Source: an uncultured virus (IMG/VR IMGVR_UViG_3300036857_000120) (lineage: Duplodnaviria; Heunggongvirae; Uroviricota; Caudoviricetes). Taken from it: a stretch of 20,000 nucleotides of DNA. The stretch lies in the IMG/VR virus record IMGVR_UViG_3300036857_000120; one strand, 5' to 3'. The notes beneath the pieces were generated by a model, which saw nothing but the letters and a program-made list of their open reading frames with translations, did not search any database and had not been told where the DNA came from. Positions 1 to 20,000 of the stretch are shown here, piece after piece. Numbering within the stretch: position 1 is the stretch's first letter; every line of letters starts with the position of its first letter. The translations under genes and the position numbers were made by a program.

Positions 1-383
1 TCGCGTGGTCGGTCGGGGTCGCGCACCAGGACGACTATCCGCGCGAGATTCCGCTCGAGCTCCTCGTCGCGGCGATTGGCGGTCCCGACGTCGAGCTTCA
101 CAGCGTCCAGACGCAAGGCGGCGAGGAGGCGACGGCGCATGGCGTCGTCGCGCACGAATTCCGGGACTTCATGCAATGCGCGGATCTCATGATGCAGATG
201 GACGAGATCGTCGCCATCGATACGGCGGCGCTCCATCTCGCCGGAGCCATCGGTCATCCGAAGGTCACCGCGCTCTTGTCGCACTGGCATTCCTGGAGAT
301 GGGACGCGCCATGGTATCCGACCATGAAGCTCGCAATCCAAAAGTCGCCCGGGGATTGGGCGAGCGCGCTCGCGCAATGTTGA
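1..383 (+). CDS. Glycosyltransferase family 9-like (heptosyltransferase-like, GT-B) protein, C-terminal part; 5' end outside window
   Basis: The frame is open from base 3 to TGA at 381-383: AWSVGVAHQDDYPREIPLELL...FRDFMQCADLMMQMDEIVAIDTAALHLAGAIGHPKV..LL..WHSWRW..PWYPTMKL..QKSPGDW. DxxxxxDTxxxHLAGAxG and WRW...PWYPxM are typical of GT9-like C-terminal domains, often TPR-fused. The ORF track shows only the last 70 aa. Confidence 0.8.
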   Translation, partial: AWSVGVAHQDDYPREIPLELLVAAIGGPDVELHSVQTQGGEEATAHGVVAHEFRDFMQCADLMMQMDEIVAIDTAALHLAGAIGHPKVTALLSHWHSWRWDAPWYPTMKLAIQKSPGDWASALAQC

Positions 384-967
384 CCCTCCCGATCACGTCG
401 CGGAACGAATTGCCGCCGATCCAGCCGGTCAATTGGGCGGGCTTGCCGCGCGAGTATCTCAACGCCGGAGAGTTGGAGATCATCATCGCCCTGGTTCGCT
501 CCATCGATCCGAAGATCATGGTCGAGATCGGGCTCGCGGCCGGAAGGACGGCGAAAGCAATCCTCCGCGAGCTTCCGGATCTGGAGCGGTATATCGGCGT
601 CGACACCGATCCCGGATATCGCACGAAACTGTCGAGCCAATGGACCGAGCGCGGCGCAAATCCCGGTCATCTCGCGCTCGCCGATTCGCGCTTTGACCGA
701 TGGCTTCTGCCGCGCGGATCCCTCGATCTCATTGCGGATGATTTCCCGGAGATCGACGCGATGTTTATCGACGGCGATCATTCGAGCGAGGCGGTCCGCC
801 ACGATAGCAATCTCGCGCGTTCCGTCGTGCGGCCGGGAGGGATCATCCTCTGGCACGACTACCACAATCACGGCGTCGAGGTGACGCGCGTCCTCGAGCT
901 CGACCGCGATCTCGGTTGCGATATCCGCCACGTCGAGGGGACTTGGCTGGCATACGAAAGGCGATGA
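377..967 (+). CDS. Class I SAM-dependent methyltransferase (Methyltransf_24-like)
   Basis: Motifs VEIGLAAGRT, YIGVD, FIDGDHS and VRPGGIILWHDY. ATG 377 overlaps the upstream stop (ATGTTGA). The ORF-track extension 5-376 overlaps the glycosyltransferase and is rejected. Confidence 0.85.
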   Translation: MLTLPITSRNELPPIQPVNWAGLPREYLNAGELEIIIALVRSIDPKIMVEIGLAAGRTAKAILRELPDLERYIGVDTDPGYRTKLSSQWTERGANPGHLALADSRFDRWLLPRGSLDLIADDFPEIDAMFIDGDHSSEAVRHDSNLARSVVRPGGIILWHDYHNHGVEVTRVLELDRDLGCDIRHVEGTWLAYERR

Positions 968-2034
968 CCATGCAGCAACAGGAAAGCGTCGTTCCGTTCA
1001 AGCGCGAGGCCGCGTTGCAGCTGCCGCCCGCAAATCAATTCGTCCGCGTCCTCGCCGCGCGGATCATCGCGCAATGTGCGCGGACCTCCGCGCTCGACGT
1101 CATGCGCGCTCGCTTCCCGAATGATCGCGTCGCCGCGGAGTGGATCATGCGCGCGGCAGTCGCGCCCGCGATGACCAGCGTCGCGGGATGGGCCGCGGAG
1201 CTCGCGCCGACGATGGTCGCGGATGGATTGACCGCGATGGGTCCAGCATCGGCCGCGCGCGAAATTCTCTCGCGCGCCTTGCGCCTCTCGTTCGAAGGTC
1301 TCGGCCATATCACCGTCCCCGGTCTGGTCGCGGACTTCGGCAATACCGGATGGGTCGCCGAGGGCCAGCCGATCCCGGTCCGCGGATTGACCCTGTCGCC
1401 GAAGACAATCGATCCGCACAAGCTCGCCGTGATCGTCGTCCTCACGCGCGAGATGATCGAAAGCAGCAACGCCGAGGCGCTCGTCTCCGACGCATTGATG
1501 AAGGGCGCGGGCCGCATCGCCGACGAGATCCTATTCGACGCCAATCCCGGCGACGCCGCGCGTCCGCCAGGTCTCCGCAACGGCGTGGCCGCGACGACGC
1601 CGAGCGGGAACACGGATGCGGAGCAAGCGGCGCTGGAGGATATCGCCGCGCTCATTAACGCGCTCGCGCCAGTCGCGGGGAATGGTCCCTATCTCCTCGT
1701 CGGATCGCCCGGGCGGGCGGCGATGCTCGCGCTCAAATTCGGCAACACCGACAACGTCACATTCCTGGGGTCGAGCGCGGTCATCAATGACCTCCTCGCC
1801 ATCGCGCCGGAGGCGCTCGCCATGGCGGCGTCGCCGGAGCCGATGATCGAGACCTCGACGGCGGGGACGGTCGTGATGGACGACACCGCGCCCGGGGCGG
1901 CCGGGGCGGCGGGGCCGGAGCGATCCATATTCCAGACCGATTCCATCGCGATCAAAATGCGCTGGCCGCTGAGTTGGCAACTAAGGGATTCCAGAGGTTT
2001 TGCATGGATGACCCCGGCGTGGAAAACGCCATAG
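964..2034 (+). CDS. HK97-fold major-capsid-like protein (paralogue 1; no protease, no obvious scaffold coiled coil)
   Basis: ATGA overlap with the methyltransferase stop. Contains GWVAEGQPIPV, HKLAVIVVLTREMIESS, RPPGLRNGV and RSIFQTDSIAIKM, each with a clear counterpart in the capsid domain at 3229-4674. Confidence 0.85.
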   Translation: MTMQQQESVVPFKREAALQLPPANQFVRVLAARIIAQCARTSALDVMRARFPNDRVAAEWIMRAAVAPAMTSVAGWAAELAPTMVADGLTAMGPASAAREILSRALRLSFEGLGHITVPGLVADFGNTGWVAEGQPIPVRGLTLSPKTIDPHKLAVIVVLTREMIESSNAEALVSDALMKGAGRIADEILFDANPGDAARPPGLRNGVAATTPSGNTDAEQAALEDIAALINALAPVAGNGPYLLVGSPGRAAMLALKFGNTDNVTFLGSSAVINDLLAIAPEALAMAASPEPMIETSTAGTVVMDDTAPGAAGAAGPERSIFQTDSIAIKMRWPLSWQLRDSRGFAWMTPAWKTP

Positions 2035-2147
2035 GCGCGGTACGGTGCGGCGGAGATTGGCGCGGCTGGCGATGCGACGGGCCGGAAGCCGCAGTTTAGA
2101 TCATTCAAATCGCTTGCGGTAGGACGGTCCCCGTCGCGGCGGGAAAC

Positions 2148-2189
2148 GGGGGGCGGGCGTCCTCGTGTCCTCCTGGACGTTCGCTCCCC
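2148..2189 (+). ncRNA. Candidate structured RNA: 15-bp stem with a CCUCCU-containing loop
   Basis: GGGGGGCGGGCGTCC (2148-2162) pairs with GGACGTTCGCTCCCC (2175-2189) using three G-U pairs that only form on the + strand. The loop is TCGTGTCCTCCT. Confidence 0.4.
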
Positions 2190-2195
2190 ACCGAT

Positions 2196-2243
2196 AAAAA
2201 AAGCGCCGCAGTCCGGGGAGGCCAATCCGACGGACCGCGGCGC
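2196..2243 (-). terminator. Putative intrinsic terminator on the minus strand
   Basis: 13-bp inverted repeat 2203-2215 / 2231-2243. Its single + strand A-C mismatch becomes a G-U pair on the minus strand, followed there by U7 (A run 2196-2202). The 15-nt loop is long for a terminator. Confidence 0.5.
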
Positions 2244-2358
2244 AGGGCCGATCCCGTTCCGTGCGGCGGTCGAGGATCGGCGGGCTCTATGGACAGAGCG
2301 CGCGGACGCTAGGCCGATTCGCCGGATGCCAGCAACCCGGACGCGGGAGGGTTTCCCC

Positions 2359-4674
2359 ATGCCGATGAAGCCGCACAAGGGCGAGAGCGAGTCGGAATTC
2401 ATGAACCGATGCGTCCCGGAGATGCTCGCGTCGGACAGTAGTCGGAGCAATGAGCAAGCCGTCGCGATCTGTGCCGACATTTGGGACCGCCGCGACAAGT
2501 CGGAGATCCGTCAACCTCCTCCGGTCGATCCGGGCGAGAGCCATGGCGAATATATCGACCGTTGCGTCGAGCAATTGGTCGACGAGGAGGACCTCGACGA
2601 GAGCGAGGCCGAAGATATTTGCGAAATGGAATGGGAGAACCGCATGACGACGCCGGTCATCACGAAGACTCACGCCGACGCGAGCGCGGGCGATCCGCTG
2701 TCCTTCGTTCTCTCCGATGCAACGCCGGATCGTTACGGCGACGTCATCGTCGTCGACGGGTGGCAACTCGGAAACTTCAAAAAAAATCCGGTCGCACTGT
2801 TTAGCCACGACCCGAAATTCATCGTCGGCCGATGGAAAAATCTCCGCGTCGAGAGCAATGGTCTCCGCGGCGATCTGGAGCTCGCGCGCGAGGGGACGTC
2901 GGATCGGATCGACGAGATCCGTCGTCTCGTCGAGGCCGGGATCCTCAAAGCGGTCTCCGTCGGTTTCAAGCCGCTCGAGCACGAGCCTATCGACAAGGAA
3001 GATCCTTGGGGCGGCGTGCGCTACACCAAATCCGAGCTAGTCGAGACTTCACTCGTGGCCGTTCCCGCAAATCCAAACGCGCTCGCGGTCGCGAAAAGTT
3101 TCGGCGTTTCTCCCGACACCTTGCGGCTCGTCTTCGCCAAGCATGGCACGGAAGACGAGACGACCAGGCGGCGGGACCTCCGCGCCAAGCATGGCGAATC
3201 GCAGCATCGAAACGACAGGAGGGGAGCGATGACGCTCGCCCAACGCATCCAGAATATCGAGGCGTCGATTGTCGCCAAGCGCGACGCGCTCGACGCGCTA
3301 CTCGCGAAGATGGACGACACCGACGTCAAGGACGCCGAGCTTACCGAGATGAACGATCTCAACGCCGATCTGGCTCGCCTGGAGAGGGCGCACGCCGGAT
3401 TGATCGAATCCGAGAAGCGTCTCGCGAAGGGCACCGACGGCGGCGGCAACGGCGACAACCGGAGTCGTGAGCTCACCGTCGTTCATGACCAGCGTCGCCC
3501 CACCAACGGCAACGGCCAGGAGCGCCGCGAGGAGATCAGAACTCCGGCCGTACATTCGCGCGGCAAGCCGAAGGACTTCACGCTCGTCGATCTCCTCGCC
3601 CGCGCGGGCGTGGTGACGATCCGCGCGAAGGAATGGAACATCCCCATGGAGGCCGCACGCGCGCGCATCTATGGCGATGACCTCGAGACCCGCGAGGTTT
3701 GCGACATTGTCTGTCGGTCCGCGGTCGCTCCGGCGATGACGACGGTCACCGGATGGGCGGCCGAGCTCGTCCAGCCGCGTTACGAGGCGATGCTCCCGCT
3801 CCTCATGCCGAGAGCATTGTTGACGCGGCTCGCTCCTCGCGGCCTCTCGCTCGACTTCGGCACCGCGGGCAAGATCGTCATCCCGGGTCGCCAGCGCACG
3901 CCGGCGCTCGCCGGATCCTTCGTCGGCGAAGGAATGCCGATCCCCGTCCGTCAAGGCGCGTTCACGTCGATCCAATTCACGAGAAAGAAGGTCGGCGTCA
4001 TCTCCGTCTGGACGAAGGAAATGGAAGACGCGAGCACGCCAGCCATCGAGGGCGTGATCCGCGAGGCGATCCAGGACGACACCAGCGTCGTCGTCGATAG
4101 CATCTTGATCGACGCCAACGCCGCGACCGTGATCCGGCCCGCCGGTCTTCTCAACGGCGTTGCCGCGCTCACGGCGACGACCGGCGGCGGACTCAACGCG
4201 CTCGTCGGCGATATCCTCCAACTCGTCGGCGCGATCACGACCGCGAGCTATGGCAATATCCGCAATCTCGTCTGGCTCGTGAATCCGGCGCAAGTCCTCT
4301 CCGCTTCCTTGACCGGCGCGGCGGCGACCGGCGTCTATCCGTTCAAGGAGGAGATCAGTCGCGGCACGCTCGCGAATATTCCGTTTATCGACTCGGCGAC
4401 CGTCCCGGCGAAGACGATGATCCTCGTCGACGCCGCGGACTTCGTCTCCATCGGCGGAGGCGCGCCGCGCTTTGATATCTCGGATTCTGCCACGATTCAC
4501 ATGGAGGACACGTCTCCGGCCGAGCTTGTCGGCACCGGCTCGCCCGGGACCGTCGCCTCGCCGCAACGGTCGCTGTTCCAGACCGACTCGCTCGCCCTCC
4601 GGATGGTCATGCCCTTGAATTGGGCGATGCGTCGTACCGGCATGGTCGCCTGGACTCAAAACGTAACGTGGTAA
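2359..4674 (+). CDS. Fused HK97-type prohead protease / major capsid protein with an N-terminal duplicated Cys/Trp module
   Basis: SD GGGAGG at 2345-2350 before ATG 2359. Protease motifs DRYGDVI, KKNPVALFSHD, GILKAVSVGF and ELVETSLVAVPANPNAL. These are followed by a coiled-coil, delta-like segment (MTLAQRIQNIEASIVAKRDAL...) and a capsid domain (FVGEGMPIPV, KKVGVISVWTKEM, RPAGLLNGV, RSLFQTDSLALRM). Confidence 0.92.
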   Translation: MPMKPHKGESESEFMNRCVPEMLASDSSRSNEQAVAICADIWDRRDKSEIRQPPPVDPGESHGEYIDRCVEQLVDEEDLDESEAEDICEMEWENRMTTPVITKTHADASAGDPLSFVLSDATPDRYGDVIVVDGWQLGNFKKNPVALFSHDPKFIVGRWKNLRVESNGLRGDLELAREGTSDRIDEIRRLVEAGILKAVSVGFKPLEHEPIDKEDPWGGVRYTKSELVETSLVAVPANPNALAVAKSFGVSPDTLRLVFAKHGTEDETTRRRDLRAKHGESQHRNDRRGAMTLAQRIQNIEASIVAKRDALDALLAKMDDTDVKDAELTEMNDLNADLARLERAHAGLIESEKRLAKGTDGGGNGDNRSRELTVVHDQRRPTNGNGQERREEIRTPAVHSRGKPKDFTLVDLLARAGVVTIRAKEWNIPMEAARARIYGDDLETREVCDIVCRSAVAPAMTTVTGWAAELVQPRYEAMLPLLMPRALLTRLAPRGLSLDFGTAGKIVIPGRQRTPALAGSFVGEGMPIPVRQGAFTSIQFTRKKVGVISVWTKEMEDASTPAIEGVIREAIQDDTSVVVDSILIDANAATVIRPAGLLNGVAALTATTGGGLNALVGDILQLVGAITTASYGNIRNLVWLVNPAQVLSASLTGAAATGVYPFKEEISRGTLANIPFIDSATVPAKTMILVDAADFVSIGGGAPRFDISDSATIHMEDTSPAELVGTGSPGTVASPQRSLFQTDSLALRMVMPLNWAMRRTGMVAWTQNVTW

Positions 4675-4734
4675 AACCCGCGGCCTAGGTCGCGAGTTGA
4701 AGGGCTGGAGACGGGTCGCATCCCGCGGCCCGTC
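4675..4734 (+). promoter_or_regulatory. Two stem-loops directly after the capsid stop (possible mRNA stabiliser or attenuator)
   Basis: AACCCGCGGC-CTAG-GTCGCGAGTT (4675-4698, imperfect) and GACGGGTCGC-ATCCC-GCGGCCCGTC (4710-4734, 10 bp with one G-U). No U-tract follows. Confidence 0.4.
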
Positions 4735-4757
4735 AATCCACAACAGGAGACGAAGAC

Positions 4758-5066
4758 ATGACAGACGATCCCGCCACCGAAGCCGCGCGCAAGCGCGTCG
4801 CCGAAGACAAGGAGCTCGTCGAGCGTTCGCGCGCGGAATATGCCGAGCGCACGAAGGGCAAGCCAACTCCGACGCAAGAGGAGTGCGATCTCGCCGTCTC
4901 CGGCGCGCACGTCGTCGAGAAGGAGGACGACGGATCCGGACCGGACCCGTCCGATCCGCGCAATCGGGAGGCGCATCAACGCCACCAGACGGCCCGCCCC
5001 GCGCCCGCGAGCGGCGGATATGCAACGCGGCAGACGACGCCGCGGCCGACGACGCGCTCCGAATAA
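4758..5066 (+). CDS. Small charged hypothetical head-region protein
   Basis: SD CAGGAG at about 4744-4749. Fills the gap between capsid and portal, and its TAA overlaps the portal ATG (TAATG). Confidence 0.75.
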   Translation: MTDDPATEAARKRVAEDKELVERSRAEYAERTKGKPTPTQEECDLAVSGAHVVEKEDDGSGPDPSDPRNREAHQRHQTARPAPASGGYATRQTTPRPTTRSE

Positions 5067-6547
5067 TGAACGCGCTCGCTCGCATCGCGCGAGTCCTCGC
5101 TCCCTTCGTCGCGAAAGCGGCGGAGGGAGAGTTTCGTCCTGGGCCGTACTATCTCCCGATCAGCGGGGGATATCTCCCGGACGGCGTTCCGACGAACTTC
5201 TGGCAATGCGCCATCGATCCGCAAGGGAGCGGCGCGCGCTCCGCGATGGTCGAGGCATGCGTCTCCGCCTATAGCCAGACCGTCGCAATGTGTCCGGGCA
5301 ATCACTGGCGCTCGAATTCAAAGGGCGGCCGGGATCGCGTCGACAATTCCGCATTGATGCGGATCATGCGCCATCCGAATGACTATTCGTCGATCTCCGA
5401 CTTCATGCTCAACGCGACGCGCATGCTCTACCTCGAGGGCAACGCCTATGCGCTCGCTCTGCGGAATTCGCGTTTCGAGGTCGACTCGCTTCATCTCATG
5501 GATTCGCGCCAGTCATATCCGCAGATCGCGGAGACCGGCGACGTGTTCTATCATCTCGCCGGGAACGAGATCATCCAGCGTCGGCTCGACATGATGGGCG
5601 GCGGGAAATTGATCGTCCCGCAACGCGACGTCATGCATATCCATTTGCACAATGATCGGCGGCAACCGTTCCCGATCCGCGGCGAGTCCCCGCTCTTGGC
5701 CGCGCTCGCGGAGATGGCGGCGACGGACGCGATCAAACAACAGCAAATCCAATTTTACATAAACCAGGCGCGGCCCTCCGCCGTGCTCTCGACCGATCTC
5801 GTCCTCCCGCGCGAGAAGGTCGCCGAGCTCCGTCAAATGTGGATGGAGCAAGCGAAGGGCCTCGACGGATGCGGCCCGGGCGGCGTCCCCATTCTCACGG
5901 CCGGACTCAAGGTCCAGCCATGGGCGGTCGTCGGCAAGGACGCGCAAGTCGCCGAGGTCATGAAGATCAGCAATGACCAGATCGCGCTTGCGTTCCGCAT
6001 CCCGCTCCAGATCCTAGGGCTCGCGTCGACCGCCTATCAATCGACCGAGGCGCTCATGCAATTGTGGATCGCGAGCGGTCTCGGGTTTGCGCTCAATCAT
6101 ATCGAGGAGAGTTTCGGTCTCCTGTTCGGATTGAAGGGCGTCCCCGACGAATATCTCGAGCTCGATACGTCGGCGCTCCTTCGCTCCATGTTCAAGGATC
6201 GGATCGAGGGACTCGCGCGCGCGGTGCAAGGCGGGATCCTCGCGCCGAATGAAGCGCGCAACCTTGAAGGATATGACGACGTGAAATTCGGGGACGAGCC
6301 TCGTGTCCAGCAGCAAGTCGTCCCATTGTCAGCTGCCGCGTCGATTCCAGTGAAGCCTCCAGGCGCTCCGGGTCCCGGCGCGCATCCGCCCGCTCCTCCC
6401 GCTCCCGGCGCTCCTCCGTCTGCCGCGGGCGAAGGAGATCAACCGAAGGACTACGACGACAATGTCCGACGGAACATCGCTCGAAGCCTTATCGCCTCCG
6501 CCGACGAACACCGCAGACGACGCACGGCGGCTCTCCGTGCTCAATGA
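5066..6547 (+). CDS. HK97-family phage portal protein
   Basis: VEACVSAYSQTVA, HPNDY...F...LYLEGNAYAL, VMHIH, GESPL, FYINQARPSAVL, IALAFRIP and GILAPNEARNLEGY, plus a Pro-rich C-terminal tail. Start at ATG 5066 by translational coupling; the ORF-track extension from 4697 is rejected. Confidence 0.92.
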   Translation: MNALARIARVLAPFVAKAAEGEFRPGPYYLPISGGYLPDGVPTNFWQCAIDPQGSGARSAMVEACVSAYSQTVAMCPGNHWRSNSKGGRDRVDNSALMRIMRHPNDYSSISDFMLNATRMLYLEGNAYALALRNSRFEVDSLHLMDSRQSYPQIAETGDVFYHLAGNEIIQRRLDMMGGGKLIVPQRDVMHIHLHNDRRQPFPIRGESPLLAALAEMAATDAIKQQQIQFYINQARPSAVLSTDLVLPREKVAELRQMWMEQAKGLDGCGPGGVPILTAGLKVQPWAVVGKDAQVAEVMKISNDQIALAFRIPLQILGLASTAYQSTEALMQLWIASGLGFALNHIEESFGLLFGLKGVPDEYLELDTSALLRSMFKDRIEGLARAVQGGILAPNEARNLEGYDDVKFGDEPRVQQQVVPLSAAASIPVKPPGAPGPGAHPPAPPAPGAPPSAAGEGDQPKDYDDNVRRNIARSLIASADEHRRRRTAALRAQ

Positions 6548-7892
6548 CGGATTGCGCGACGCGCTAGGCGAAACGATCCAGATCCTCCGGGAGCAATGGG
6601 AGCGCGAATATGCGCTGATGGAGATGCATGCGCGCACGACGCTCGCCGAGCTTCGCGCGCAACAGGTCGAGCGGCTCGCCGCGCTCGACGCCGCATCGCG
6701 CGTGATGATGGAGGAGCTCGGCGCAAGGGTCACGGCGCGGCTCGCACAAGTGAAGGACGGCGCGCCGGGAGCCGAGGGGCCAGCGGGTCCCGTCGGTCCC
6801 ATCGGCGAGAAGGGAGATCGCGGCGATGCGGGAGAACAGGGGCCAGCGGGTCCAGCGGGCGATCCGGGAAGGCAAGGCGATCCGGGCGCGAAGGGCGATG
6901 CGGGAGCAATGGGAGATCGCGGCGCGGACGGTCCTCCTGGAGCCGTCGGGCCTGTCGGTCCGTCTGGTCCTCCGGGCGAGGTCGGGCCAGCGGGCACGAG
7001 CGGCGAGCGAGGTCCCGACGGTCCTCCCGGCGAGCGCGGAGAAAAGGGAGACCCCGGCGACGTCGGCGCTCCCGGCGCGAAGGGCGAGACCGGAGATCGC
7101 GGCGCTCCCGGCGAGCGCGGAGAGGCGGGGCCGGAAGGTCCTACCGGAGCCACAGGGGCGGCCGGAGAAGCCGGTCCCGCGGGGCCGCAGGGGGAGAAGG
7201 GGGACCAAGGTCCCGAAGGGCCTCCGGGCCGTCCTGGAGAAGCGGGCGCGGCCGGTCCGGGCGGAGCCGAAGGTCCCGCGGGAGCCGCGGGTGACGTCGG
7301 TCCAGCGGGTCCGCGCGGCCTCGTCGGCGAGCGGGGAGAGATCGGACCAGCGGGGCCGGAAGGGCCTCCCGGGCCGGTCGGCGTTCTCCCGGCCGTAACG
7401 GCATTCGAGGCGGAGCGGGTCTATTACCGCGGCGACGTCGTCGCGCATAAGGGCTCGACGTTCCAGGCGCGCAAGGACACCGGCCAAGCGCCGCCGCACG
7501 GCGACTGGATCCCGCTCGCGTTCCGCGGCGTCGACGGCGTCTCGCCGAAGCCGCGCGGGACCTGGACGGCGACGGAGGCATATGCCGCGCTCGATATCGT
7601 CGCCAGCGACGGCGCATCGTTCATCGCGCTCCGCGATCTCCCCGGTCCGCTCCCGGGCGAGGGCTGGCAACTCCTCGTCCGCCAAGGTCGGATCGGACGA
7701 GCGGGGCCGCAGGGCGAGCCGGGGCCGAAGGGCGAGCGCGGAGATCCGGGCGCGCCCGCGCCGTCGATCATCGGATGGAAGCTCGACCGCGAGACCTATC
7801 GCGCGACGCCGATCCTCTCCGATGGCAAGCGCGGACCAGTGCTCGAGCTCCGCGGCCTGTTCGAACAATTCCAATCGGAGACGCGGGCATGA
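6462..7892 (+). CDS. Collagen-like protein (N-terminal coiled coil, 70 GXY triplets, two small beta modules, short second GXY run)
   Basis: GXY is uninterrupted from 6759 to 7388. It is followed by FEAERVYYRGDVVAHKGSTFQA...GDW and GTWTATEAYAALDIVASDGASFIA...GWQLL (resembling CBM5/12-type repeats) and about 8 further triplets. Start uncertain: ATG 6462 with AAGGA upstream, or GTG 6537. Confidence 0.85.
   Translation: MSDGTSLEALSPPPTNTADDARRLSVLNDGLRDALGETIQILREQWEREYALMEMHARTTLAELRAQQVERLAALDAASRVMMEELGARVTARLAQVKDGAPGAEGPAGPVGPIGEKGDRGDAGEQGPAGPAGDPGRQGDPGAKGDAGAMGDRGADGPPGAVGPVGPSGPPGEVGPAGTSGERGPDGPPGERGEKGDPGDVGAPGAKGETGDRGAPGERGEAGPEGPTGATGAAGEAGPAGPQGEKGDQGPEGPPGRPGEAGAAGPGGAEGPAGAAGDVGPAGPRGLVGERGEIGPAGPEGPPGPVGVLPAVTAFEAERVYYRGDVVAHKGSTFQARKDTGQAPPHGDWIPLAFRGVDGVSPKPRGTWTATEAYAALDIVASDGASFIALRDLPGPLPGEGWQLLVRQGRIGRAGPQGEPGPKGERGDPGAPAPSIIGWKLDRETYRATPILSDGKRGPVLELRGLFEQFQSETRA
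6759..7388 (+). repeat. Collagen Gly-X-Y repeat region (9-nt periodicity, 70 triplets)
   Basis: Counted from the translation, GAP GAE GPA ... GPP GPV GVL, with no interruption. Confidence 0.95.
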
Positions 7893-8092
7893 GCTTGCGC
7901 CAGGTCCTCCTCCAGTCCGCGCGCGTGGCCGAGCTTCGTCATCGTGCCGACGATCTCGCGCGCGCCGCGCGTCCGCCCGCGCGCATCGTATTGACCGGCG
8001 ATCCCAAGCGCGATCGGCGGCGTCTCGGTCTCCTCCTCCTGGACGAGCGCCGCAAAAATGCGAAACTCCGCGCGACCATCGGAGAGGAGTGA
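7889..8092 (+). CDS. Small basic hypothetical protein
   Basis: ATGA overlap with the collagen stop, GGAG at 7877-7880; MSLRQVLLQSARVAELR...ATIGEE. Confidence 0.6.
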   Translation: MSLRQVLLQSARVAELRHRADDLARAARPPARIVLTGDPKRDRRRLGLLLLDERRKNAKLRATIGEE

Positions 8093-8095
8093 TCC

Positions 8096-8317
8096 ATGCG
8101 CGTGACCTGTCCATGCTGCAAAGGCGACAAGCGCCTCCCATTGCACGAGAACGTCGACGGCATTGTCATCGTGACGCTTCCATCGTGCGGCCATTGTCAA
8201 GGCGAGGGCACAATCGAGAGCGAGATCCTCGAGACCGAATGCGCCATCGTTTACAGCGACGGGAGCGTCGTCGAGACGACGGCGCGACTCGTCCCGCGCT
8301 ATCCGACGACGGAGTGA
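8096..8317 (+). CDS. Small zinc-finger protein (DnaJ-type CxxCxGxG-like pair)
   Basis: Strong SD GGAGAGGAG upstream; CPCCKGDK and CGHCQGEG. Confidence 0.7.
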   Translation: MRVTCPCCKGDKRLPLHENVDGIVIVTLPSCGHCQGEGTIESEILETECAIVYSDGSVVETTARLVPRYPTTE

Positions 8318-8321
8318 GCTC

Positions 8322-8984
8322 ATGCCGGAGGTCGATATCGACGTTATCACCGAGGCGACGACGCATGATTTGATCTCGCTCGCCGATCTTAAAATCATGC
8401 TCGACATTCCGGCCGGGGACACGTCGAACGATCAGCAACTCCAATTGTTGATCGAGCAAAATTCCGAGGCGATTGCGATGGAATGCAATCGCGTTTTCGG
8501 AAAGGAGGAGGTCGAGGAGCTCTGGCAATGCGTCGCCATCGAATGCTGTCCGGACGGCGCATCGAAAATCTGGCTCTCGCATTATCCGGTCGATCTCGTC
8601 GAGCCATTCACGGTCGAGAGCCCGCCCGGGACGGTCCTGGATCCGACCGCCTATCGGGTCGAGAAATGGTCGGGGAAATTGACGATCAAAGCCGGGACGT
8701 CGAGCTCGATCCTCGTCCATTACACCGGGGGCTTCGATCTGCCCGACGAGGCTCCCGGTCCGTTGCAACAGGCGACCGGCGTCCTCGTGCGAAAGTATCG
8801 CACCGAAGCCGCGGCGGCGAGCACGAGCGGGAGCGGCGTCCGCATGCTCGCGCACAAGGATTCGCGGGTCATCTATTTCTCGCCGAAGGACATGGCGGGC
8901 GGGACGACGACGAGCACCGGACCGAGCGTCGAGACCAGCGCGATCAAAAATCTCCTCTCGAAATACACGCGATATTTTATTTGA
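8322..8984 (+). CDS. Head-tail connector/adaptor (HK97 gp6 / SPP1 gp15-like)
   Basis: DLISLADLKIMLDI..D...DQQLQLLIEQNSEAIAMECNRVF, LSHYPV, VHYTGGF..P...P..LQQA and C-terminal IKNLLSKY; expected position after the head genes. Confidence 0.8.
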   Translation: MPEVDIDVITEATTHDLISLADLKIMLDIPAGDTSNDQQLQLLIEQNSEAIAMECNRVFGKEEVEELWQCVAIECCPDGASKIWLSHYPVDLVEPFTVESPPGTVLDPTAYRVEKWSGKLTIKAGTSSSILVHYTGGFDLPDEAPGPLQQATGVLVRKYRTEAAAASTSGSGVRMLAHKDSRVIYFSPKDMAGGTTTSTGPSVETSAIKNLLSKYTRYFI

Positions 8985-8994
8985 GGGAGACGGC

Positions 8995-9564
8995 ATGGAC
9001 GACTTCGGCGGAATGCCGACGATCATCCGCTTTACCAAGGCGGAGGCCGACGAGGCGATTGCGGCGGGCGACAAGCGATGGCAATTCGCACGCAACAGGA
9101 ATGCGCGAAACTACGGGATCGATCTCTCGCCGGAGGAGTGCAAGGAGAACCATCACGTCGGGTCCATCGGCGAATGGGTTTGCGCCGAATATTTCGGTCT
9201 GGAATTCGAGGGCGGGACCGATTTCGATTCCTATGAATCGCTGGTCGCTCCGGACTTGAAGATCATCGAGGTCCGCGCGCGCCGGATCCAATTCGGTTTG
9301 AATGCCGATCTCACCATTCGGCCCGACGACAAGATGCGGCTCCCGGTCGTCCTCGTGCGCGTATCGATGGAGCGGATGCTCGCCGAGATCGTCGGCTGGC
9401 TGTGCGGATGGGAAGCAATCGAGCGCGAGGATAAAATCTGGTACGGCCCGCGCCAGGTCTTCTATGTCCCGCCTCCGTATCATTCGGTCCTGTCGCTCGT
9501 GCAATGGCTCGCTTGCGGTCGCCGTCCGCATTGGTGCCCGGAGAAATATCGGAGCGTCGCCTAA
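8995..9564 (+). CDS. Hypothetical protein, possibly PD-(D/E)XK nuclease-like fold
   Basis: SD GAGGGAG. Pattern GSIGEWVCAEYFG ... APDLKIIEVRAR ... VVLVRV ... EIVGWL resembles E...PD...ExK, with R in place of K. Confidence 0.55.
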   Translation: MDDFGGMPTIIRFTKAEADEAIAAGDKRWQFARNRNARNYGIDLSPEECKENHHVGSIGEWVCAEYFGLEFEGGTDFDSYESLVAPDLKIIEVRARRIQFGLNADLTIRPDDKMRLPVVLVRVSMERMLAEIVGWLCGWEAIEREDKIWYGPRQVFYVPPPYHSVLSLVQWLACGRRPHWCPEKYRSVA

Positions 9565-10076
9565 TGCCGTTCCTGGTCGAGGTCAGCACGAACCTCCGCG
9601 ATCACGGACCAATCGTGCGGAGCGCGGTCGTCATGCTGTCGCAACGCATCCGGACGCGAAGCCGGAAGGACATTGCGGCGGCCGGTCATTTCGGGCGCTA
9701 CGCGAAAGGATTTAATACGAGCTTCAAGCGCATCTCCGGCGGATATGTCGTCGAGACCCAACTCCGTCCCGCGTTTCTCAAGGTCAAGGAATACGGCGGG
9801 GTCTCCATCGGTAAACCGTTTCTCTGGATTCCGAAGCCGCCGCTCCGGATCAAACTCCGCAAATACGGCGGCAAGCTCATTCGCCCGAAGGGCAAGCGCG
9901 TCCTAATCCGCCCGACCGACGGCGAGGTCATGTATATCGCGATCCCAAGCGTGACCCATCGCGCGGTGTTCCATCTCCGCCAGATCGAGAAGGAGGAGAC
10001 CGAGCGATTCGTCGTGAACATGAAGGAAGGGATCTATTCGGCGAAGACCCAGGAGACCGTCCGATTCGGAGGCTAA
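9564..10076 (+). CDS. Basic neck/tail-completion protein (DUF6441-like; positional equivalent of lambda Z / HK97 gp10)
   Basis: TAATG coupling. Lys/Arg-rich, with EYGGVSIGKPFLWIP. The function is inferred from position. Confidence 0.55.
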   Translation: MPFLVEVSTNLRDHGPIVRSAVVMLSQRIRTRSRKDIAAAGHFGRYAKGFNTSFKRISGGYVVETQLRPAFLKVKEYGGVSIGKPFLWIPKPPLRIKLRKYGGKLIRPKGKRVLIRPTDGEVMYIAIPSVTHRAVFHLRQIEKEETERFVVNMKEGIYSAKTQETVRFGG

Positions 10077-10080
10077 CGCG

Positions 10081-10449
10081 ATGCTCTACAATCTCCAGGA
10101 CGATCTCTATCTCAAAGTCTGGGCGGTCTGGGCGCGGCCGGTCACCGTCACGCCGACGATCTCGCAACCCGCGCAACCGGCCTATGGCGGGCGTGGCTAT
10201 TACGATCAAAAGTCGCTCGACATTCTGGCGGAGAATGGCGCGATCATCTCCGACGGCGAGACCTATCTCGACATTCTCGAAAGCGAGTATCCGGTCCTGC
10301 CGATGCAAGGCGACCAGATCGATATCCCATTCCACCAAGGCGTGCGCGGCGGGACATTCAAGGTCCTCGATCTCACCCCGGGCAACGCCGGCGGGATGAT
10401 TACGATCACGCTCCGCAAGATCGTCACCGACAAACCGGCCACGCCATGA
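10081..10449 (+). CDS. Head-tail joining / head-closure protein (lambda FII-like)
   Basis: 122 aa, beta-rich pattern RPVTVTP...RGYYD...P.QGDQIDI....FKVLD...GG.ITITL; position in the neck cluster. Confidence 0.65.
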   Translation: MLYNLQDDLYLKVWAVWARPVTVTPTISQPAQPAYGGRGYYDQKSLDILAENGAIISDGETYLDILESEYPVLPMQGDQIDIPFHQGVRGGTFKVLDLTPGNAGGMITITLRKIVTDKPATP

Positions 10450-11078
10450 ACGCTCCGGTCCCGATCAATCCAAACGGCCACTATGCAAATTCCCGGTCCT
10501 GGATGATCCAGGGCGTTTTCCTGGAACGGTTGAAGCTCGTTCCGCCGTTCTCGACCGACGTCGCGAAATTCTGTCGGACCGTCGCGCTCCCGATCCAGGA
10601 GGAGCACTTGCCGCGTCTCGGCGTCTATCTCATGCCCGACGACAGTTTCGACGCGCTCAACGGGCCGCAAGGCAATCTCGGCCATCCGCATATGCGATGG
10701 AAGACGACACTCGGTTTCTCTTACATCGTGGTCAATAACGATCCGGAGATGACCGAATACGCGCTCGATATCGGATACTGGTCGATCCTCGCACTGTTGC
10801 ATGATCCGGCATGGGCCAAGTGGCCGGGGACCGATGATCCGATGATTAACGGCATATCGGGCGGCGCGTCGCGCAAGGTCTATGGCATGGCGGGCAAGCA
10901 GAACGAGACTCCCATCGGCGAGATGCAGATGGAGCTCGTCGTCCATCACGAGTGGATATTCGAGCCAATCGTGAACGATGTTTTCCAAGCGATGCATTCG
11001 CAACTCGTCCTCCCCGGCGACGATCCGGATAATCCGCAACGTCCGCCCGTCGTCACCGAATGGACCCTGGACCAGTAG
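10446..11078 (+). CDS. Putative tail terminator protein
   Basis: ATGA coupling; LPIQEEHLPRLGVY motif; lies just before the DUF2635-like and sheath genes, as in Mu-like tails. Confidence 0.55.
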   Translation: MNAPVPINPNGHYANSRSWMIQGVFLERLKLVPPFSTDVAKFCRTVALPIQEEHLPRLGVYLMPDDSFDALNGPQGNLGHPHMRWKTTLGFSYIVVNNDPEMTEYALDIGYWSILALLHDPAWAKWPGTDDPMINGISGGASRKVYGMAGKQNETPIGEMQMELVVHHEWIFEPIVNDVFQAMHSQLVLPGDDPDNPQRPPVVTEWTLDQ

Positions 11079-11092
11079 AGAGGAGAAAACAG

Positions 11093-11479
11093 ATGGATCT
11101 CATGCAACGCTATCCGGTCAGCGGTCGCCCGCGGCTCCGGGATCGCCATACGGGCTTGACGCGCCCGTCGCATATCCGCGTCCGCGCGGCGAACGAGCGC
11201 ATCCGATTGGCGATGAAGCACGGCGTCACTGGCGTCGGCTTCATGCCCGATATCGGGCAATCGGTCGAATGGCCTTTCGATCAATTCACGAAGCGCCGGA
11301 TCTTGAAGGGCGACGTCACAATCGACGAGGGCGCATCCGGCGGCGAGGCCGCGGCCGAAATATTCAAGCGGCACAAGATCACGGTCAAGACCGAGAACAG
11401 AAACGACGCCGAGCAACCGCACGGACGTTCGCCGCGCCGAAAGACCGCGGAGACCTTGCCGCCGAGCTCCTCGACGTAA
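11093..11479 (+). CDS. DUF2635-like (Mu gp38-like) small tail-region protein
   Basis: SD GAGGAG before ATG 11093. GQSVEWPFDQFTKRRILKGDVTI resembles the RRLxxGDV signature, and the gene directly precedes the sheath. Confidence 0.65.
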   Translation: MDLMQRYPVSGRPRLRDRHTGLTRPSHIRVRAANERIRLAMKHGVTGVGFMPDIGQSVEWPFDQFTKRRILKGDVTIDEGASGGEAAAEIFKRHKITVKTENRNDAEQPHGRSPRRKTAETLPPSSST

Positions 11480-11500
11480 TCCGACTCGAGTCGAGTCGGA
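11480..11500. repeat. Perfect 10-bp inverted repeat with 1-nt centre
   Basis: TCCGACTCGA-G-TCGAGTCGGA. Confidence 0.85.
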
Positions 11501-11508
11501 ATTCATCC

Positions 11509-11543
11509 GGCCCGTCGTGAGACGCGCCATTCCCATGATGGAG
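11509..11543 (+). promoter_or_regulatory. Conserved leader stem-loop plus SD, copy 1 (sheath)
   Basis: GGC-C-CGTC-GTGA-GACG-C-GCC then ATTCCC...GATGGAG; near-identical element at 13222-13259. Confidence 0.65.
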
Positions 11544-11550
11544 ACAAACC

Positions 11551-13155
11551 ATGCCGATCTCTTTTGATGCCATTCCCGCTCAATGGCGCATGCCGCTTTT
11601 CTGGGCCGAGGTCGACCCGTCGATGGCGGGGCTTCCGATTGTGCGCGACCCGATCCTCCTGGTCGGATCGATGATCGCGGACCCGACCGACACGACGATT
11701 TATCCGACGCCGGATCCGGCGCTCCCCACGGGCGTCGTGCCAGGTATCGCCGTGCCGAACATTCCAAAGCCCATCGGCACGCAAGCGCAAGCAGATCGCG
11801 AGTACGGGATGGGGAGCGAGCTTGCTTCCATGTTCGCCGCATGCGTCGCGAACAATTTCGCGCACGAGACATGGTGCCTGCCGGTCGCGCCGCTCGCGGG
11901 ATCGGAGGCGTCGTCGGGAACGATCACCGTCGTCGCGCCGGCGACCGAGGCCGGGATGATCCATCTCTATATCGCCGGTCATCACGTCGGGATCGCCATC
12001 GGCACGACCGATCTCATTGCGGATATCGCGACGCAACTCGCCGCGGCGATCAACGCCAATCCGAAATTGCCGGTCGTCGCGACCTCTGCGGCGGCGGTCG
12101 TCACGTTGACGGCGAAGACGCGCGGAGACAACGGCGACGATATCACCGTGCAACTCAATTTCTACGGCAAGATCGGCGGCCAGGAATTGCCGCCCGGGTG
12201 TCAACTCACGTTGCCCGCGACCGGCCGCTTGACCGGCGGCGGCGGCGTGCCCGACTTCACCGTCGCGATCTCCAATCTCGGCGAGCATGCTTACGAGTAC
12301 GTCGCGCTTCCTCACACCGACTCGAATACGCTGTTCGATTGGGAACAGGAATTCGGCTTTGAGGATATCGGCCGCTGGGGCTGGATGCGTCAGCTATACG
12401 GAATGATCTTCTGTGCCAAGCGCGGCGAATATTCCGACCTCCTCCTGTGGGGAGATCCGATCACTGGCGCGACGCCGAACTTCGGACCGATCTCGGTCAT
12501 GGGCGTCGAGGAGACCGCGGCCTCGCCGGTCTATGAATGGTGCGCGGCCTATTGCGCGAAGGCCGCGCGCGCGTTGACCAATGATCCGGCGCGCCCGCTC
12601 CAGACGTTGAAGCTCAACAAGATCCTGCCGTGCCAGCGGGAGGATTCATTCATCCTGCCGGAGTTGAATTCGCTCTCCGGCGTCGGGATCGCCACGCAAA
12701 AGATCGGCTCCGACGGACAGCCGATGGTCATGCGCGATACGACGACCTATCAACTCAATCTCTACGGCCAGAGCGACGATGCCTATGAGCTTGTGACGAC
12801 CATGTCGACGCTTGCGCGGATCATCCGCAATCAGCGCCAGGTCATTACGTCGAAATTCCCGCGACACAAGCTCGCGAATGACGGGACCAGATTCGGCGTT
12901 GGTCAAAAGATCGTCACGCCGAAGATCGTCAAGGCGGAACTCGTCTCGCAGTATCGGATCGACGAATTCAACGGCCTCGTCGAAGACGTCGCGTCGTTCA
13001 AGGATCATCTCATTGTCGAGCGCGATCCCAACAATCCGAACAGGCTCAACGTCCTGTGGCCGCCCGATCTCGTGAATCAGCTGCGCGTGTATGCGGTCCT
13101 CGTTCAATTCAGACTGCAATACAACCGCGGCCAGGATCTCGAGGTCATTCGCTAG
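11551..13155 (+). CDS. Contractile tail sheath protein (Mu gpL-like)
   Basis: MPISFDAIPAQWRMPLFWAEVD, YGMGSELASM, GRWGWMRQLYG, DPARPLQTL, TTTYQLN.YG..DDAY, KFPRHKLANDGTRFG.GQ.IVTP and VERDPNNPNRLNVLWPPDLVNQLRV. Confidence 0.95.
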   Translation: MPISFDAIPAQWRMPLFWAEVDPSMAGLPIVRDPILLVGSMIADPTDTTIYPTPDPALPTGVVPGIAVPNIPKPIGTQAQADREYGMGSELASMFAACVANNFAHETWCLPVAPLAGSEASSGTITVVAPATEAGMIHLYIAGHHVGIAIGTTDLIADIATQLAAAINANPKLPVVATSAAAVVTLTAKTRGDNGDDITVQLNFYGKIGGQELPPGCQLTLPATGRLTGGGGVPDFTVAISNLGEHAYEYVALPHTDSNTLFDWEQEFGFEDIGRWGWMRQLYGMIFCAKRGEYSDLLLWGDPITGATPNFGPISVMGVEETAASPVYEWCAAYCAKAARALTNDPARPLQTLKLNKILPCQREDSFILPELNSLSGVGIATQKIGSDGQPMVMRDTTTYQLNLYGQSDDAYELVTTMSTLARIIRNQRQVITSKFPRHKLANDGTRFGVGQKIVTPKIVKAELVSQYRIDEFNGLVEDVASFKDHLIVERDPNNPNRLNVLWPPDLVNQLRVYAVLVQFRLQYNRGQDLEVIR

Positions 13156-13221
13156 AGTCGCTTCGACTCCAGCGCCCGCGCGCTGGTAACGCAAACGGCC
13201 CGACGCGGGACAGGGCCGCTC

Positions 13222-13259
13222 GCCCCGTCGTGATGACGCGGCAATCCCGATAGATGGAG
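13222..13259 (+). promoter_or_regulatory. Conserved leader stem-loop plus SD, copy 2 (tube)
   Basis: GCC-C-CGTC-GTGAT-GACG-C-GGC then AATCCC...GATGGAG. Confidence 0.65.
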
Positions 13260-13267
13260 GTCCCACT

Positions 13268-13654
13268 ATGGCGCAAGCAGTCGCCGGAACGGCATTCTTC
13301 AAGGTCAACGGGAATCAACTCCCGTTGCGCGGCAACTTCACGGTCTCCTCCTCGCCCATCGAGCGGACAATGTTGGCGGGCCAGGATTACGTCCATGGCT
13401 ACCAGGAGCTTCCCCGCGTCCCCTGGATCGAGGGCGACGTGACGACGACGCAAGAATTGTCGCTCGAGGTCCTCGACGCGATGGTCGACGTCACCGTCAC
13501 GGCCGAACTTATCAACGGCAAGGTCTATGTTCTCAAGGAGGCGGCTTGCAAATCCGCCTTCGAAAACAATACGAGAGAGGGCCAGATCCGCGTCAAATTC
13601 GAGGGGACCTCGTGCGAGGAGATCGGAGGGGTCGGAGCCGGGATCGGCGCGTAA
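13268..13654 (+). CDS. Tail tube protein (Mu gpM-like)
   Basis: AGTAFFKVNGNQLPLRG, GQDYVHGYQELPRVPWIEG, TVTAELINGKVYVL and EGQIRVKFEG; follows the sheath. Confidence 0.92.
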   Translation: MAQAVAGTAFFKVNGNQLPLRGNFTVSSSPIERTMLAGQDYVHGYQELPRVPWIEGDVTTTQELSLEVLDAMVDVTVTAELINGKVYVLKEAACKSAFENNTREGQIRVKFEGTSCEEIGGVGAGIGA

Positions 13655-13680
13655 CATCGGCAACGTAACGGAGGACACGA

Positions 13681-14163
13681 ATGAACGAAATGAACCGACC
13701 GCCCGTCGAGGGCGAGCCCGTCATCCATCGCACCGACGCATTGAGGCCCGACATTCCCGAAGCGCCGCCGAAGCCCGCGGCGGCGCAACCGCCAGAGCGG
13801 CCGGAGGACACGGTCGACTTCGGCGAGGACGAGGATCGGGAGTTGACGCCGGAGGAGATCGAACGAAAGGAGGCGATGGAGGATCCGCTGGCCTATCCGT
13901 TGTCGCGGCCGATCCAGGCGCACGGCGAGGAGATCAAGATCCTCCGATGGCGCGAGCCGACGGGGGCCGATATCGAGAAGGCGGGCAACCCGATCTCGAT
14001 TGAGGTCATCCCCGACACCGGACGTTATCGCGTCGCCTTCGACGAGAAAAAAATGGCCGCGATGATCTGCCAGCTTGCGTCGATCCCGCCGCATAGCGTG
14101 CGCTCGCTCCGGGCCGGAGACTGGACCGCCATCGCGACGAAAATCTTCCGTTTTTTCGCATGA
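13681..14163 (+). CDS. Tail assembly chaperone (Mu gp41 / P2 E-like)
   Basis: SD GGAGG; LSRPIQAHGEEIKILRWREPTGADI...LASIPPHSVRSLRAGDW...FF; lies between tube and tape measure. Confidence 0.85.
   Translation: MNEMNRPPVEGEPVIHRTDALRPDIPEAPPKPAAAQPPERPEDTVDFGEDEDRELTPEEIERKEAMEDPLAYPLSRPIQAHGEEIKILRWREPTGADIEKAGNPISIEVIPDTGRYRVAFDEKKMAAMICQLASIPPHSVRSLRAGDWTAIATKIFRFFA
14151..14157 (+). other. Putative -1 programmed ribosomal frameshift site T TTT TTC
   Basis: Codons CGT TTT TTC GCA TGA give an X XXY YYZ heptamer. The -1 frame continues without a stop into ORF 14160-14351. Confidence 0.7.
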
Positions 14164-14351
14164 TGGTCGGAGGCGCGAGGCCCGACGATATCATCCTCTC
14201 CTGTTACAAGCTCGCCCGCCACTATCATCTCGATCCGGAAATCATCCTCCATAAACCGTTGAGCGACGTGCAACGCATGGTCGCCTGGACGAACCGGATG
14301 GAGGAGGAGATCGCGGCGGAGCAAGAGGCGCAGCAACGGATGCGCGATTGA
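14160..14351 (+). CDS. Tail chaperone C-terminal extension (gpGT / E+E'-type frameshift product, or small coupled ORF)
   Basis: -1 frame relative to 13681-14163; CYKLARHYHLDPEIILHKPLSDV; ends 3 nt before the first tape-measure-like gene. Confidence 0.75.
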   Translation: MMVGGARPDDIILSCYKLARHYHLDPEIILHKPLSDVQRMVAWTNRMEEEIAAEQEAQQRMRD

Positions 14352-14354
14352 GCG

Positions 14355-16640: not shown

Positions 16641-16646
16641 TGCGCC

Positions 16647-19655: not shown

Positions 19656-19659
19656 TCCC

Positions 19660-20000
19660 ATGGCCTCGATCCGCGATATCCATAACGTCTGGCGCGATGC
19701 GCTCGTCCCGGCCTCGTTCAAGGGCGCGCCGTTCCATGTCGAGACGAGCCAGCGCGCGGGCGGGCGGCGGACCGTCGTTCACACCTACCCAAAGCGCAAT
19801 GTTCCCTACTCCGAGGACATGGGCCGGGAGCCGACGCGCTGGACGTTCTCCGGATATCTCATTCATTTCGACAAGGGATTCCCGGGCAATCTCTTGTCGC
19901 AAATCGCGCAGCTCAACGCGGCGCTCGACAGCGATGACGCGGGCCTCCTGATTCATCCGTTGATCGGATCGATGCTCGTCATGTGCGAGCGATGGTCCTA
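19660..20000 (+). CDS. Mu gpN-like DNA circularisation protein, N-terminal part (runs off window)
   Basis: Translated by hand from ATG 19660: MASIRDIHNVWRDALVPASFKGAPFHVETSQRAGGRRTVVHTYPKRNVPYSEDMGR...LIHPLIG. This matches the DNA_circ_N pattern and the expected position after the tape measure. Absent from the ORF track. Confidence 0.9.
   Translation, partial: MASIRDIHNVWRDALVPASFKGAPFHVETSQRAGGRRTVVHTYPKRNVPYSEDMGREPTRWTFSGYLIHFDKGFPGNLLSQIAQLNAALDSDDAGLLIHPLIGSMLVMCERWS

Follow-up and report, generated by a model that had tools for sequence, protein, structure and literature searches.

Bacteriophage T4 is large and virulent and keeps its protease and its scaffold core apart from the capsid protein; its two capsid paralogues, gp23 and gp24, are both processed. 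According to the published account, gp23 forms the hexamer lattice of the T4 head and its paralogue gp24 the pentamers at eleven vertices (PMC3012670). A second case is the Mycobacterium abscessus siphophage Jabs, where roles were assigned by cryo-electron microscopy to two adjacent HK97-fold paralogues: the hexons consist of MCPh (594 amino acids (aa)), from which 266 N-terminal residues are removed, the pentons consist of MCPp (257 aa), which is not processed and whose axial domain is smaller, and the T=9 shell has 80 hexons and 11 pentons (bioRxiv 10.64898/2026.07.24.740622). Our literature search for phages with two capsid paralogues returned T4 and Jabs, plus a two-component encapsulin, and found no description of the phage group studied here. 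That group is represented by a 20,000-nucleotide stretch of DNA from an uncultured tailed virus (IMG/VR IMGVR_UViG_3300036857_000120), hereafter the window, which carries two capsid genes: CAP1 (964..2034, + strand), a free-standing HK97-fold capsid paralogue of 356 aa, and FUS (2326..4674, +), an open reading frame (ORF) of 782 aa that joins N-terminal repeats, an HK97-type prohead protease, a coiled-coil scaffold and a major capsid domain (residues ~417-782; 3574..4674, +), the paralogue of CAP1. We give about even chances to CAP1 being a working second capsid-shell protein of one and the same temperate myophage, co-adapted with the capsid domain released from FUS.

The layout of the window resembles that of Jabs MCPh (ORF72) and MCPp (ORF73) in placing adjacent HK97-fold paralogues in one head module, and in pairing a long paralogue that bears an N-terminal part, removed in Jabs, with a short one that lacks it and that has the smaller axial domain in Jabs. 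It differs in that Jabs is an actinobacterial siphophage whose capsid roles were solved, while ours are proposed from the genes alone, by layout; in the identity between the paralogues, 18% in Jabs and 32% for CAP1 and FUS; and in that the Jabs account neither reports a protease fused to the long protein nor describes a link between a glycosyltransferase and the capsid. The likeness to T4 gp23 and gp24 is again one of layout, a main capsid protein accompanied by a paralogue that forms the vertex pentamers in T4. FUS itself shares its architecture, and the FUS-portal order, with known protease-capsid fusions (phrog_617, NF045541), including those of Stx-converting phages such as BP-4795 that are annotated 'major head protein/prohead protease'; the annotated cultured examples have one capsid gene under the match, unlike the combination of CAP1 and FUS seen here.

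The paralogy of the two genes is readily seen. A single BLASTP alignment pairs CAP1 residues 44-348 with FUS residues 441-776 (108/337 identical, 32%; E 9e-35), and an alignment with a CAP1 profile extends across FUS residues 423-778. CAP1 exceeds the curated cutoffs of both Pfam PF05065 Phage_capsid (35.6 bits; cutoff 24.2) and TIGR01554 (33.4 bits; cutoff 27.5), and the corresponding scores for FUS are 33.5 and 32.2 bits. CAP1 also matches phrog_617 'major head protein' and has no protease or scaffold part; FUS matches the same family over its full length (E 6.7e-85), with Peptidase_S78 at residues 153-254 and Phage_capsid at residues 490-706, but falls outside the NCBIfam model NF045541 (scaf_prot_MCP2), for which it scores 43 bits (cutoff 525). 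An AlphaFold 2 (AF2) model of CAP1, with a predicted local distance difference test score (pLDDT) of 68.5 and a poorly modelled E-loop region below 50, gave 150 matches in the PDB at E<=0.001 by Foldseek, led by the HK97, Che8 and D3 capsids and by encapsulins, with probability 1.00 and template-modelling (TM) scores by target of 0.44-0.58 among the top matches. CAP1 is an intact HK97-fold capsid paralogue of the FUS capsid domain. An earlier note on this DNA had described two divergent paralogous capsid genes of this fold, the first intact and devoid of protease and scaffold; its coordinates are correct, all four motif pairs that it quoted are found in the translations, and domain and family searches agree with it on the parts that CAP1 lacks. 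We also considered CAP1 as an encapsulin shell protein and rejected this, given a score of 11.2 bits against a cutoff of 100 for NF041155 and the location of the gene between terminase and portal genes.

Because the window ends short of the terminase genes, and the nearest record (G001) begins within FUS, the upstream gene order was taken from relatives. Both in locus L052, whose CAP1 is 88% identical to that of the window, and in the Bradyrhizobium chromosome L002, the order is TerS, TerL, CAP1 (with or without two further genes, X and MT, discussed below), FUS and portal. The CAP1 start lies less than 20 nucleotides (nt) from the end of TerL in many loci, such as L065, L080, L097 and L098. 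A complete FUS follows downstream, 0.1-8 kb away, in 55 of 83 loci with a CAP1 orthologue; in 4 more (L067, L102, L128 and L130) FUS begins at the locus end, and the remaining 24 end before FUS could appear. The order of FUS then portal is typical of the group and is the same in relatives and in Burkholderia phage vB_SBP9, the best cultured match, where a separate protease and one capsid gene stand in that order. CAP1 is part of the same phage head module and not of a neighbouring element. The idea that it is the capsid gene of a satellite, of the kind found in integrase-primase islands, was rejected, the gene lying between TerL and FUS in a block with no integrase, primase or replication gene.

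CAP1 belongs to a broad and consistently unfused family. A word-indexed search returned 394 homologues of near length, the best 120 of which are 302-374 aa long and 48-100% identical; the 96 longer homologues all stay at or below 36% identity, most have a protease domain as well, and they are of the FUS type. In an exhaustive profile search, 1026 representative clusters matched at E<=1e-30, and 148 of the best 150 measured at most 487 aa. The CAP1 lineage is always unfused. Among 161 capsid domains from the fetched loci, 71 distinct CAP1 orthologues form one clade with a support of 99 in the Shimodaira-Hasegawa-like approximate likelihood ratio test (SH-aLRT), which is the conserved paralogue clade that the earlier note had suggested looking for by phylogeny. 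The FUS capsid domains form a clade of their own, supported at 99 in a quick tree under a mixture model. Since CAP1 and the FUS domains fall into separate clades, CAP1 is no recent duplicate of the FUS domain in the same genome, and our claim about its origin is limited to that statement. The deep branching order of FUS, other lone capsid genes and CAP1 together with CAP3, a third free-standing capsid paralogue of ~346 aa that forms the sister clade of CAP1 (four loci in the tree), has a support of only 26; a grouping of CAP1 and CAP3 with lone capsid genes from small islands, which had an SH-aLRT of 94 in a first tree, was discarded when its node support came to 26 under the mixture model.

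The coding sequence of CAP1 is maintained. Its ORF is intact across the 71 distinct orthologues, at 47-88% identity, and the ratio of nonsynonymous to synonymous substitution rates (dN/dS) is 0.22 relative to L052 and 0.30 relative to L053; for the FUS capsid domain, which is 94% identical to that of L052, the corresponding values are 0.15 and 0.18. CAP1 is under purifying selection, and it is also the faster-evolving of the two. In 250 pairs sampled from the 36 genomes that have both genes, pairwise identity had a median of 54.7% for CAP1 and 55.2% for the N-terminal part of FUS, against 67.2% for both the FUS capsid domain and the portal, and CAP1 was better conserved than the FUS capsid domain in only 1 of the 250 pairs. 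One could still picture CAP1, lacking protease and scaffold as it does, as the decaying leftover of a duplication or as part of a separate element such as a satellite or second prophage, and the poorly supported deep relation to the lone island genes leaves room for such an origin. An intact and selected ORF, a fixed position after TerL, an overlap with the neighbouring ORF and a block free of integrase and replication genes speak so consistently against it that we give this explanation almost no weight. Conserved synteny and a conserved clade likewise answer the two doubts voiced in the earlier note, that the paralogue might not be conserved in relatives or might belong to a separate adjacent element.

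CAP1 is far from universal among related phages. In a portal-anchored sample, drawn blind to capsid content and comprising 22 loci with a complete interval from TerL to FUS, CAP1 was present in 10 and absent in 12, one of the latter having a CAP3-like gene instead. Of 201 species genomes from the family to which the L002 host belongs, only that host gave a CAP1-type match. We followed the co-inheritance of CAP1 with its neighbours in trees of one set of 40-41 loci in which the interval from TerL to FUS is complete (31 rows for TerL), 17 of them with CAP1, built by quick IQ-TREE searches under LG+G4. On the tree of the FUS capsid domain (40 rows), CAP1 presence changes once, and the CAP1-bearing group has an SH-aLRT of 98.8. 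The N-terminal part of FUS (40 rows) gives three changes, and CAP1-bearing loci as a single group are not rejected by the approximately unbiased (AU) test (p 0.40). Six changes each are found on the trees of the portal (41 rows) and of TerL (31 rows), where the single group is rejected (AU p 8e-5 and 3e-5, respectively). Since the portal and TerL trees reject the CAP1-bearing group, the flanking genes have been exchanged among phages while CAP1 has been kept with one lineage of FUS capsid domain. Such linkage would be expected of proteins that have to match one another within a single shell, and we think it likely, from this and the gene's conservation in the head module, that CAP1 is a component of the virion shell.

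The analogy with T4 and Jabs leads us to posit that CAP1 is a second shell subunit and most likely the vertex (penton) protein, a proposal that we place at or slightly short of an even call. We hypothesize that FUS would carry protease and scaffold into the procapsid and supply the hexons, that CAP1, having no scaffold of its own, would join the FUS assembly, and that it would there occupy a distinct kind of site, with the eleven five-fold vertices as the likeliest. Besides the faster evolution of CAP1 noted above, two features of the sequences bear on this proposal. CAP1 and CAP3 are without ~14 + 4 residues of the A-domain that are present in all FUS domains, a small difference whose placement rests on the moderate model, and Shine-Dalgarno pairing is weaker for CAP1 than for FUS in 40 of 49 loci, a comparison in which more candidate starts were scanned for FUS, favouring FUS. 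The earlier note had offered a vertex protein alongside a size modifier, an alternative shell and heterogeneous virions. Its vertex idea emerges as the best-supported reading, through the analogy with T4 gp24 and Jabs, the co-inheritance with one FUS lineage and the apparently smaller A-domain, while nothing in our analysis speaks in favour of the others.

The same co-inheritance and selection evidence would also fit a shell protein that is no vertex specialist, one that mixes into hexons, replaces FUS-derived subunits so that fewer protease and scaffold copies are packed, sets the capsid size or builds a second kind of particle. The occurrence of CAP3 (L062:2139-3179, L108:4631-5644, L117:5322-6428, L122:2293-3336 and L140:2807-4060) suggests more than two roles, and the tape-measure gene of the window is duplicated as well, as the earlier note had stated: the products of 14355-16640 and 16647-19655 are 33% identical across 368 N-terminal residues. 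Yet there is no sign of two particle types. In the solved two-paralogue HK97-fold phage shells that we found, which are those of T4 and Jabs alone, the short paralogue (unprocessed in the Jabs account) is at the pentons, and CAP1 has the apparently smaller A-domain and the weaker Shine-Dalgarno pairing. We regard a non-vertex shell role as improbable and continue with CAP1 as a candidate penton protein.

The window links CAP1 to two enzyme genes. Upstream of CAP1 lies the 3' end of gene X (last 126 codons; 3..383, +), the remainder of which is upstream of the window, and then MT (377..967, +), a class I S-adenosylmethionine methyltransferase of 196 aa if ATG 377 is its start, which was chosen from the length of its orthologues. 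The X stop codon (381-383) overlaps the MT start in ATGTTGA at 377-383, and the MT stop (965-967) overlaps the CAP1 start in ATGA at 964-967; from these overlaps, X, MT and CAP1 appear to be translationally coupled in the window. Over its 126 aa, the X end shares 87% identity with the C-terminal part of a 396-aa protein of L052 (L052:8233-9423), and the AF2 model of the latter (pLDDT 91.5) comprises a small beta domain, TPR-like helices (residues 78-157) and a GT-B-type domain. The best Foldseek matches of this model, at probability 1.00, were to 3tov (a GT9 enzyme; E 4e-6), XcOGT, TibC and WaaC, and so include bacterial O-GlcNAc transferase homologues and a protein heptosyltransferase (TibC); its Atlas neighbours were TPR/Glyco_transf_9 clusters, with a TM score of 0.75 by query. 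In profile searches, Pfam Glyco_transf_9 scored 20.7-21.4 bits, under its cutoff of 22, TPR matches lay below the Pfam cutoffs, and a profile search of the PDB retrieved TPR proteins at E 6.5e-4 to 1. X is predicted from the model to be a glycosyltransferase of ~395 aa that combines a TPR part with a GT-B/GT9-like part. MT, with 58.8 bits to Pfam Methyltransf_24 and orthologues of ~190 aa that match TylF/CmcI, is a putative sugar O-methyltransferase-like protein of the Methyltransf_24/TylF/CmcI group.

X follows CAP1 closely. It is found in 71 of 84 loci with CAP1, in 0 of 29 that have only FUS and in 1 of 19 others (L006, which has a CAP1 fragment); in the portal-anchored sample, it is present in 6 of 10 loci with CAP1 and in 0 of 12 without. 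The block of the three genes occurs in three orders, CAP1-X-MT, MT-CAP1-X and, as in the window, X-MT-CAP1. A combination of parts like that predicted for X has been described for FlmG of Caulobacter (PMC7591256) and for Maf-1 (bioRxiv 10.1101/2023.12.03.569772), in which, according to these accounts, a TPR part binds or selects the structural-protein acceptor; X, as modelled, would likewise join a TPR-like part to a GT-B-type transferase part. Compared by description, X differs from FlmG in being shorter (~395 versus 596 aa), in being phage-encoded and in lying beside a capsid gene, not a flagellin gene. Phage-encoded glycosyltransferases have been linked to capsid-protein glycans in the cluster F mycobacteriophages Che8 and Rita (as cited in PMC11256854). 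In those phages, the modification is on the single major capsid protein, with the enzymes encoded near the other genome end; in our proteobacterial phage, the enzyme genes adjoin a second capsid paralogue, and that glycosylation takes place is our proposal from the gene linkage. We hypothesize that X, helped by MT, would put a methylated sugar on CAP1 or the shell. CAP1 as the glycosylation target is a tentative suggestion, possible and well short of an even prospect. The wider picture, in which a large uncultured clade of alphaproteobacterial temperate myophages would build a two-paralogue head whose CAP1 is decorated by a TPR-guided GT9-like glycosyltransferase and a sugar O-methyltransferase, giving glycosylated vertices, and in which CAP1-like genes of islands could be satellite tools that replace CAP1 to re-size the helper head, we consider unlikely to hold as a whole. 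The account given in the earlier note comprised neither this coupling of CAP1 to a glycosyltransferase and a methyltransferase nor the absence of CAP1 from about half of the relatives. Two CAP1-like capsid proteins, P0295 (819 aa) and P0301 (894 aa), have a C-terminal extension of 460-540 residues; they were considered as CAP1-X fusions and rejected, as the extensions show no similarity to X and match no Pfam family.

Several observations weigh against a glycosylated vertex protein, or against a shell role for CAP1 altogether. The absence of CAP1 from 12 of the 22 portal-anchored relatives implies that a complete shell can be made from the fused capsid protein without a second one, and a third paralogue, as held by some genomes, would be needless for a simple division into hexons and pentons. 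When the FUS capsid domains of CAP1-bearing genomes were compared with other FUS domains, no clade-specific indel and only 3 diagnostic columns were found, and nothing therefore suggests that these domains have lost the ability to form pentons. The stretch between TerL and FUS is variable and carries, around CAP1, accessory genes for large proteins bearing ADP-ribosyltransferase, Zeta-toxin and DUF7178 domains and for GH25, so that CAP1 could itself be accessory. With respect to X, the two Bradyrhizobium prophages have CAP1 and no X, the linkage of X to CAP1 comes from one clade and possibly reflects one evolutionary event, and no Ser/Thr column separates CAP1 proteins with X from those without. 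The CAP1 model is of moderate confidence, particularly in the E-loop region, and the Shine-Dalgarno comparison is biased towards FUS by the larger number of starts scanned. Cultured phages of the collection searched are all distant, with top tblastn identities of 29% for CAP1 and 28% for the portal.

Taken to their conclusion, the variable, accessory-rich surroundings of CAP1 and its absence from about half of the relatives would make it a non-virion accessory, for instance a capsid-like decoy that disturbs assembly in competing phages or satellites, or one that masks the capsid protein from host sensors, while X and MT, unrelated to it, would serve lysogenic conversion through sugars of the cell surface. 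Lipopolysaccharide is the classical substrate of GT9 enzymes, the fold matches of X include WaaC, and lone capsid genes occur in small integrase-primase islands too. On the other hand, CAP1 is encoded within the late head operon, in the same orientation and apparently coupled in translation, and it is co-inherited with one lineage of FUS capsid domain in spite of mosaic flanking genes. X, for its part, never occurs without CAP1 in complete loci and has a predicted TPR part, a trait tied to protein acceptors in FlmG, Maf-1 and OGT. We hold such an accessory role to be quite unlikely, and retain CAP1 as a likely second shell subunit, with the vertices as its best candidate place.

Further capsid genes and large proteins were noted in the surrounding loci. 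In L140, CAP3 stands directly before FUS, and there is no CAP1. Very divergent free-standing capsid paralogues occur within FUS-type head modules at L013:14663-15724 and L014:7834-8877, one after the adaptor gene and one just before FUS. Lone capsid genes are also found in small islands (L008:4729-11387, L027:4896-10933, L042:4408-12309 and L044:2704-12037) that begin with an integrase and in which the capsid gene is followed by small ORFs. Toprim and AAA_25 primase/helicase-like genes lie between integrase and capsid gene in L008 and L027, whereas large unmatched ORFs take the primase position in L042, whose small ORFs include an HNH gene, and in L044, whose small ORFs include a weak small-terminase match; the layout of these islands resembles that of a satellite. 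Between TerL or CAP1 and FUS, very large proteins are encoded at L122:7101-9980, L124:6067-8751, L024:5168-8593 and L074:13546-15309, among them an oxidoreductase with an ADP-ribosyltransferase domain, one protein with a Zeta-toxin-like kinase domain, and DUF7178 proteins. The same stretch of L103 (L103:6978-9549) encodes a methyltransferase, a Maf/MptE-like protein and a GDSL hydrolase.

A single late operon, that of a contractile-tailed phage, lies on the + strand of the window (1-20000). The 291-nt spacer between CAP1 and FUS holds a GC-rich hairpin (2203..2243; -32.8 kcal/mol on the + strand, z -2.3) with A7 before it on the + strand, which reads as U7 after it on the - strand. It is terminator-like only when read on the - strand, where it resembles an intrinsic terminator, and no - strand gene lies to its right; a scan of window positions 1-5000 for promoters and terminators gave nothing above the shuffled expectation. 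The likelier start of FUS is ATG 2359, with a GGAGG Shine-Dalgarno sequence 8 nt upstream. Ahead of the protease, the FUS N-terminus (2359-2650, residues ~18-105) has two copies of the motif ES..E(F/Y)..RCV....(A/E)..IC...W, for which family searches gave no match. The portal gene (4697..6547, +; Pfam Phage_portal E 1.5e-56, phrog_12) lies directly 3' of FUS and is followed by genes for a collagen-like fibre, head-tail adaptor, sheath, tube and tail chaperone, the two tape-measure-like genes and a Mu gpP-like baseplate gene. The collagen-repeat fibre gene (6462-7892) comes directly after the portal gene and overlaps the end of its ORF, with a G+C content of ~74% and a weak CBM_5_12 match. The second tape-measure-like gene (16647-19655), of 1002 aa, has a weak VanY-type peptidase match near residues 851-880.

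Shells made of two HK97-fold paralogues have been documented in T4 and, according to the account available since 2026, in Jabs, and our finding suggests that they are widely spread in soil prophages, as judged from 1026 clusters. Here the two-paralogue arrangement comes together with a protease-scaffold-capsid fusion, and the value of the finding lies in the breadth of the family, in this pairing and in an unexpected link to a pair of enzymes of the protein-glycosylation type. Annotators are warned that, within one prophage, the name 'phage major capsid protein' may stand on either of two genes that are not equivalent. Sister phages that differ in whether they have CAP1 offer a natural comparison for the study of how vertex specialisation arises and of how a subunit without a scaffold is recruited, while the link to X and MT provides a testable lead to capsid glycosylation outside the mycobacteriophages. 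If the picture of glycosylated vertices is true, it would mean that phages of Gram-negative soil bacteria aim protein glycosylation at one specialised subunit of their shell.

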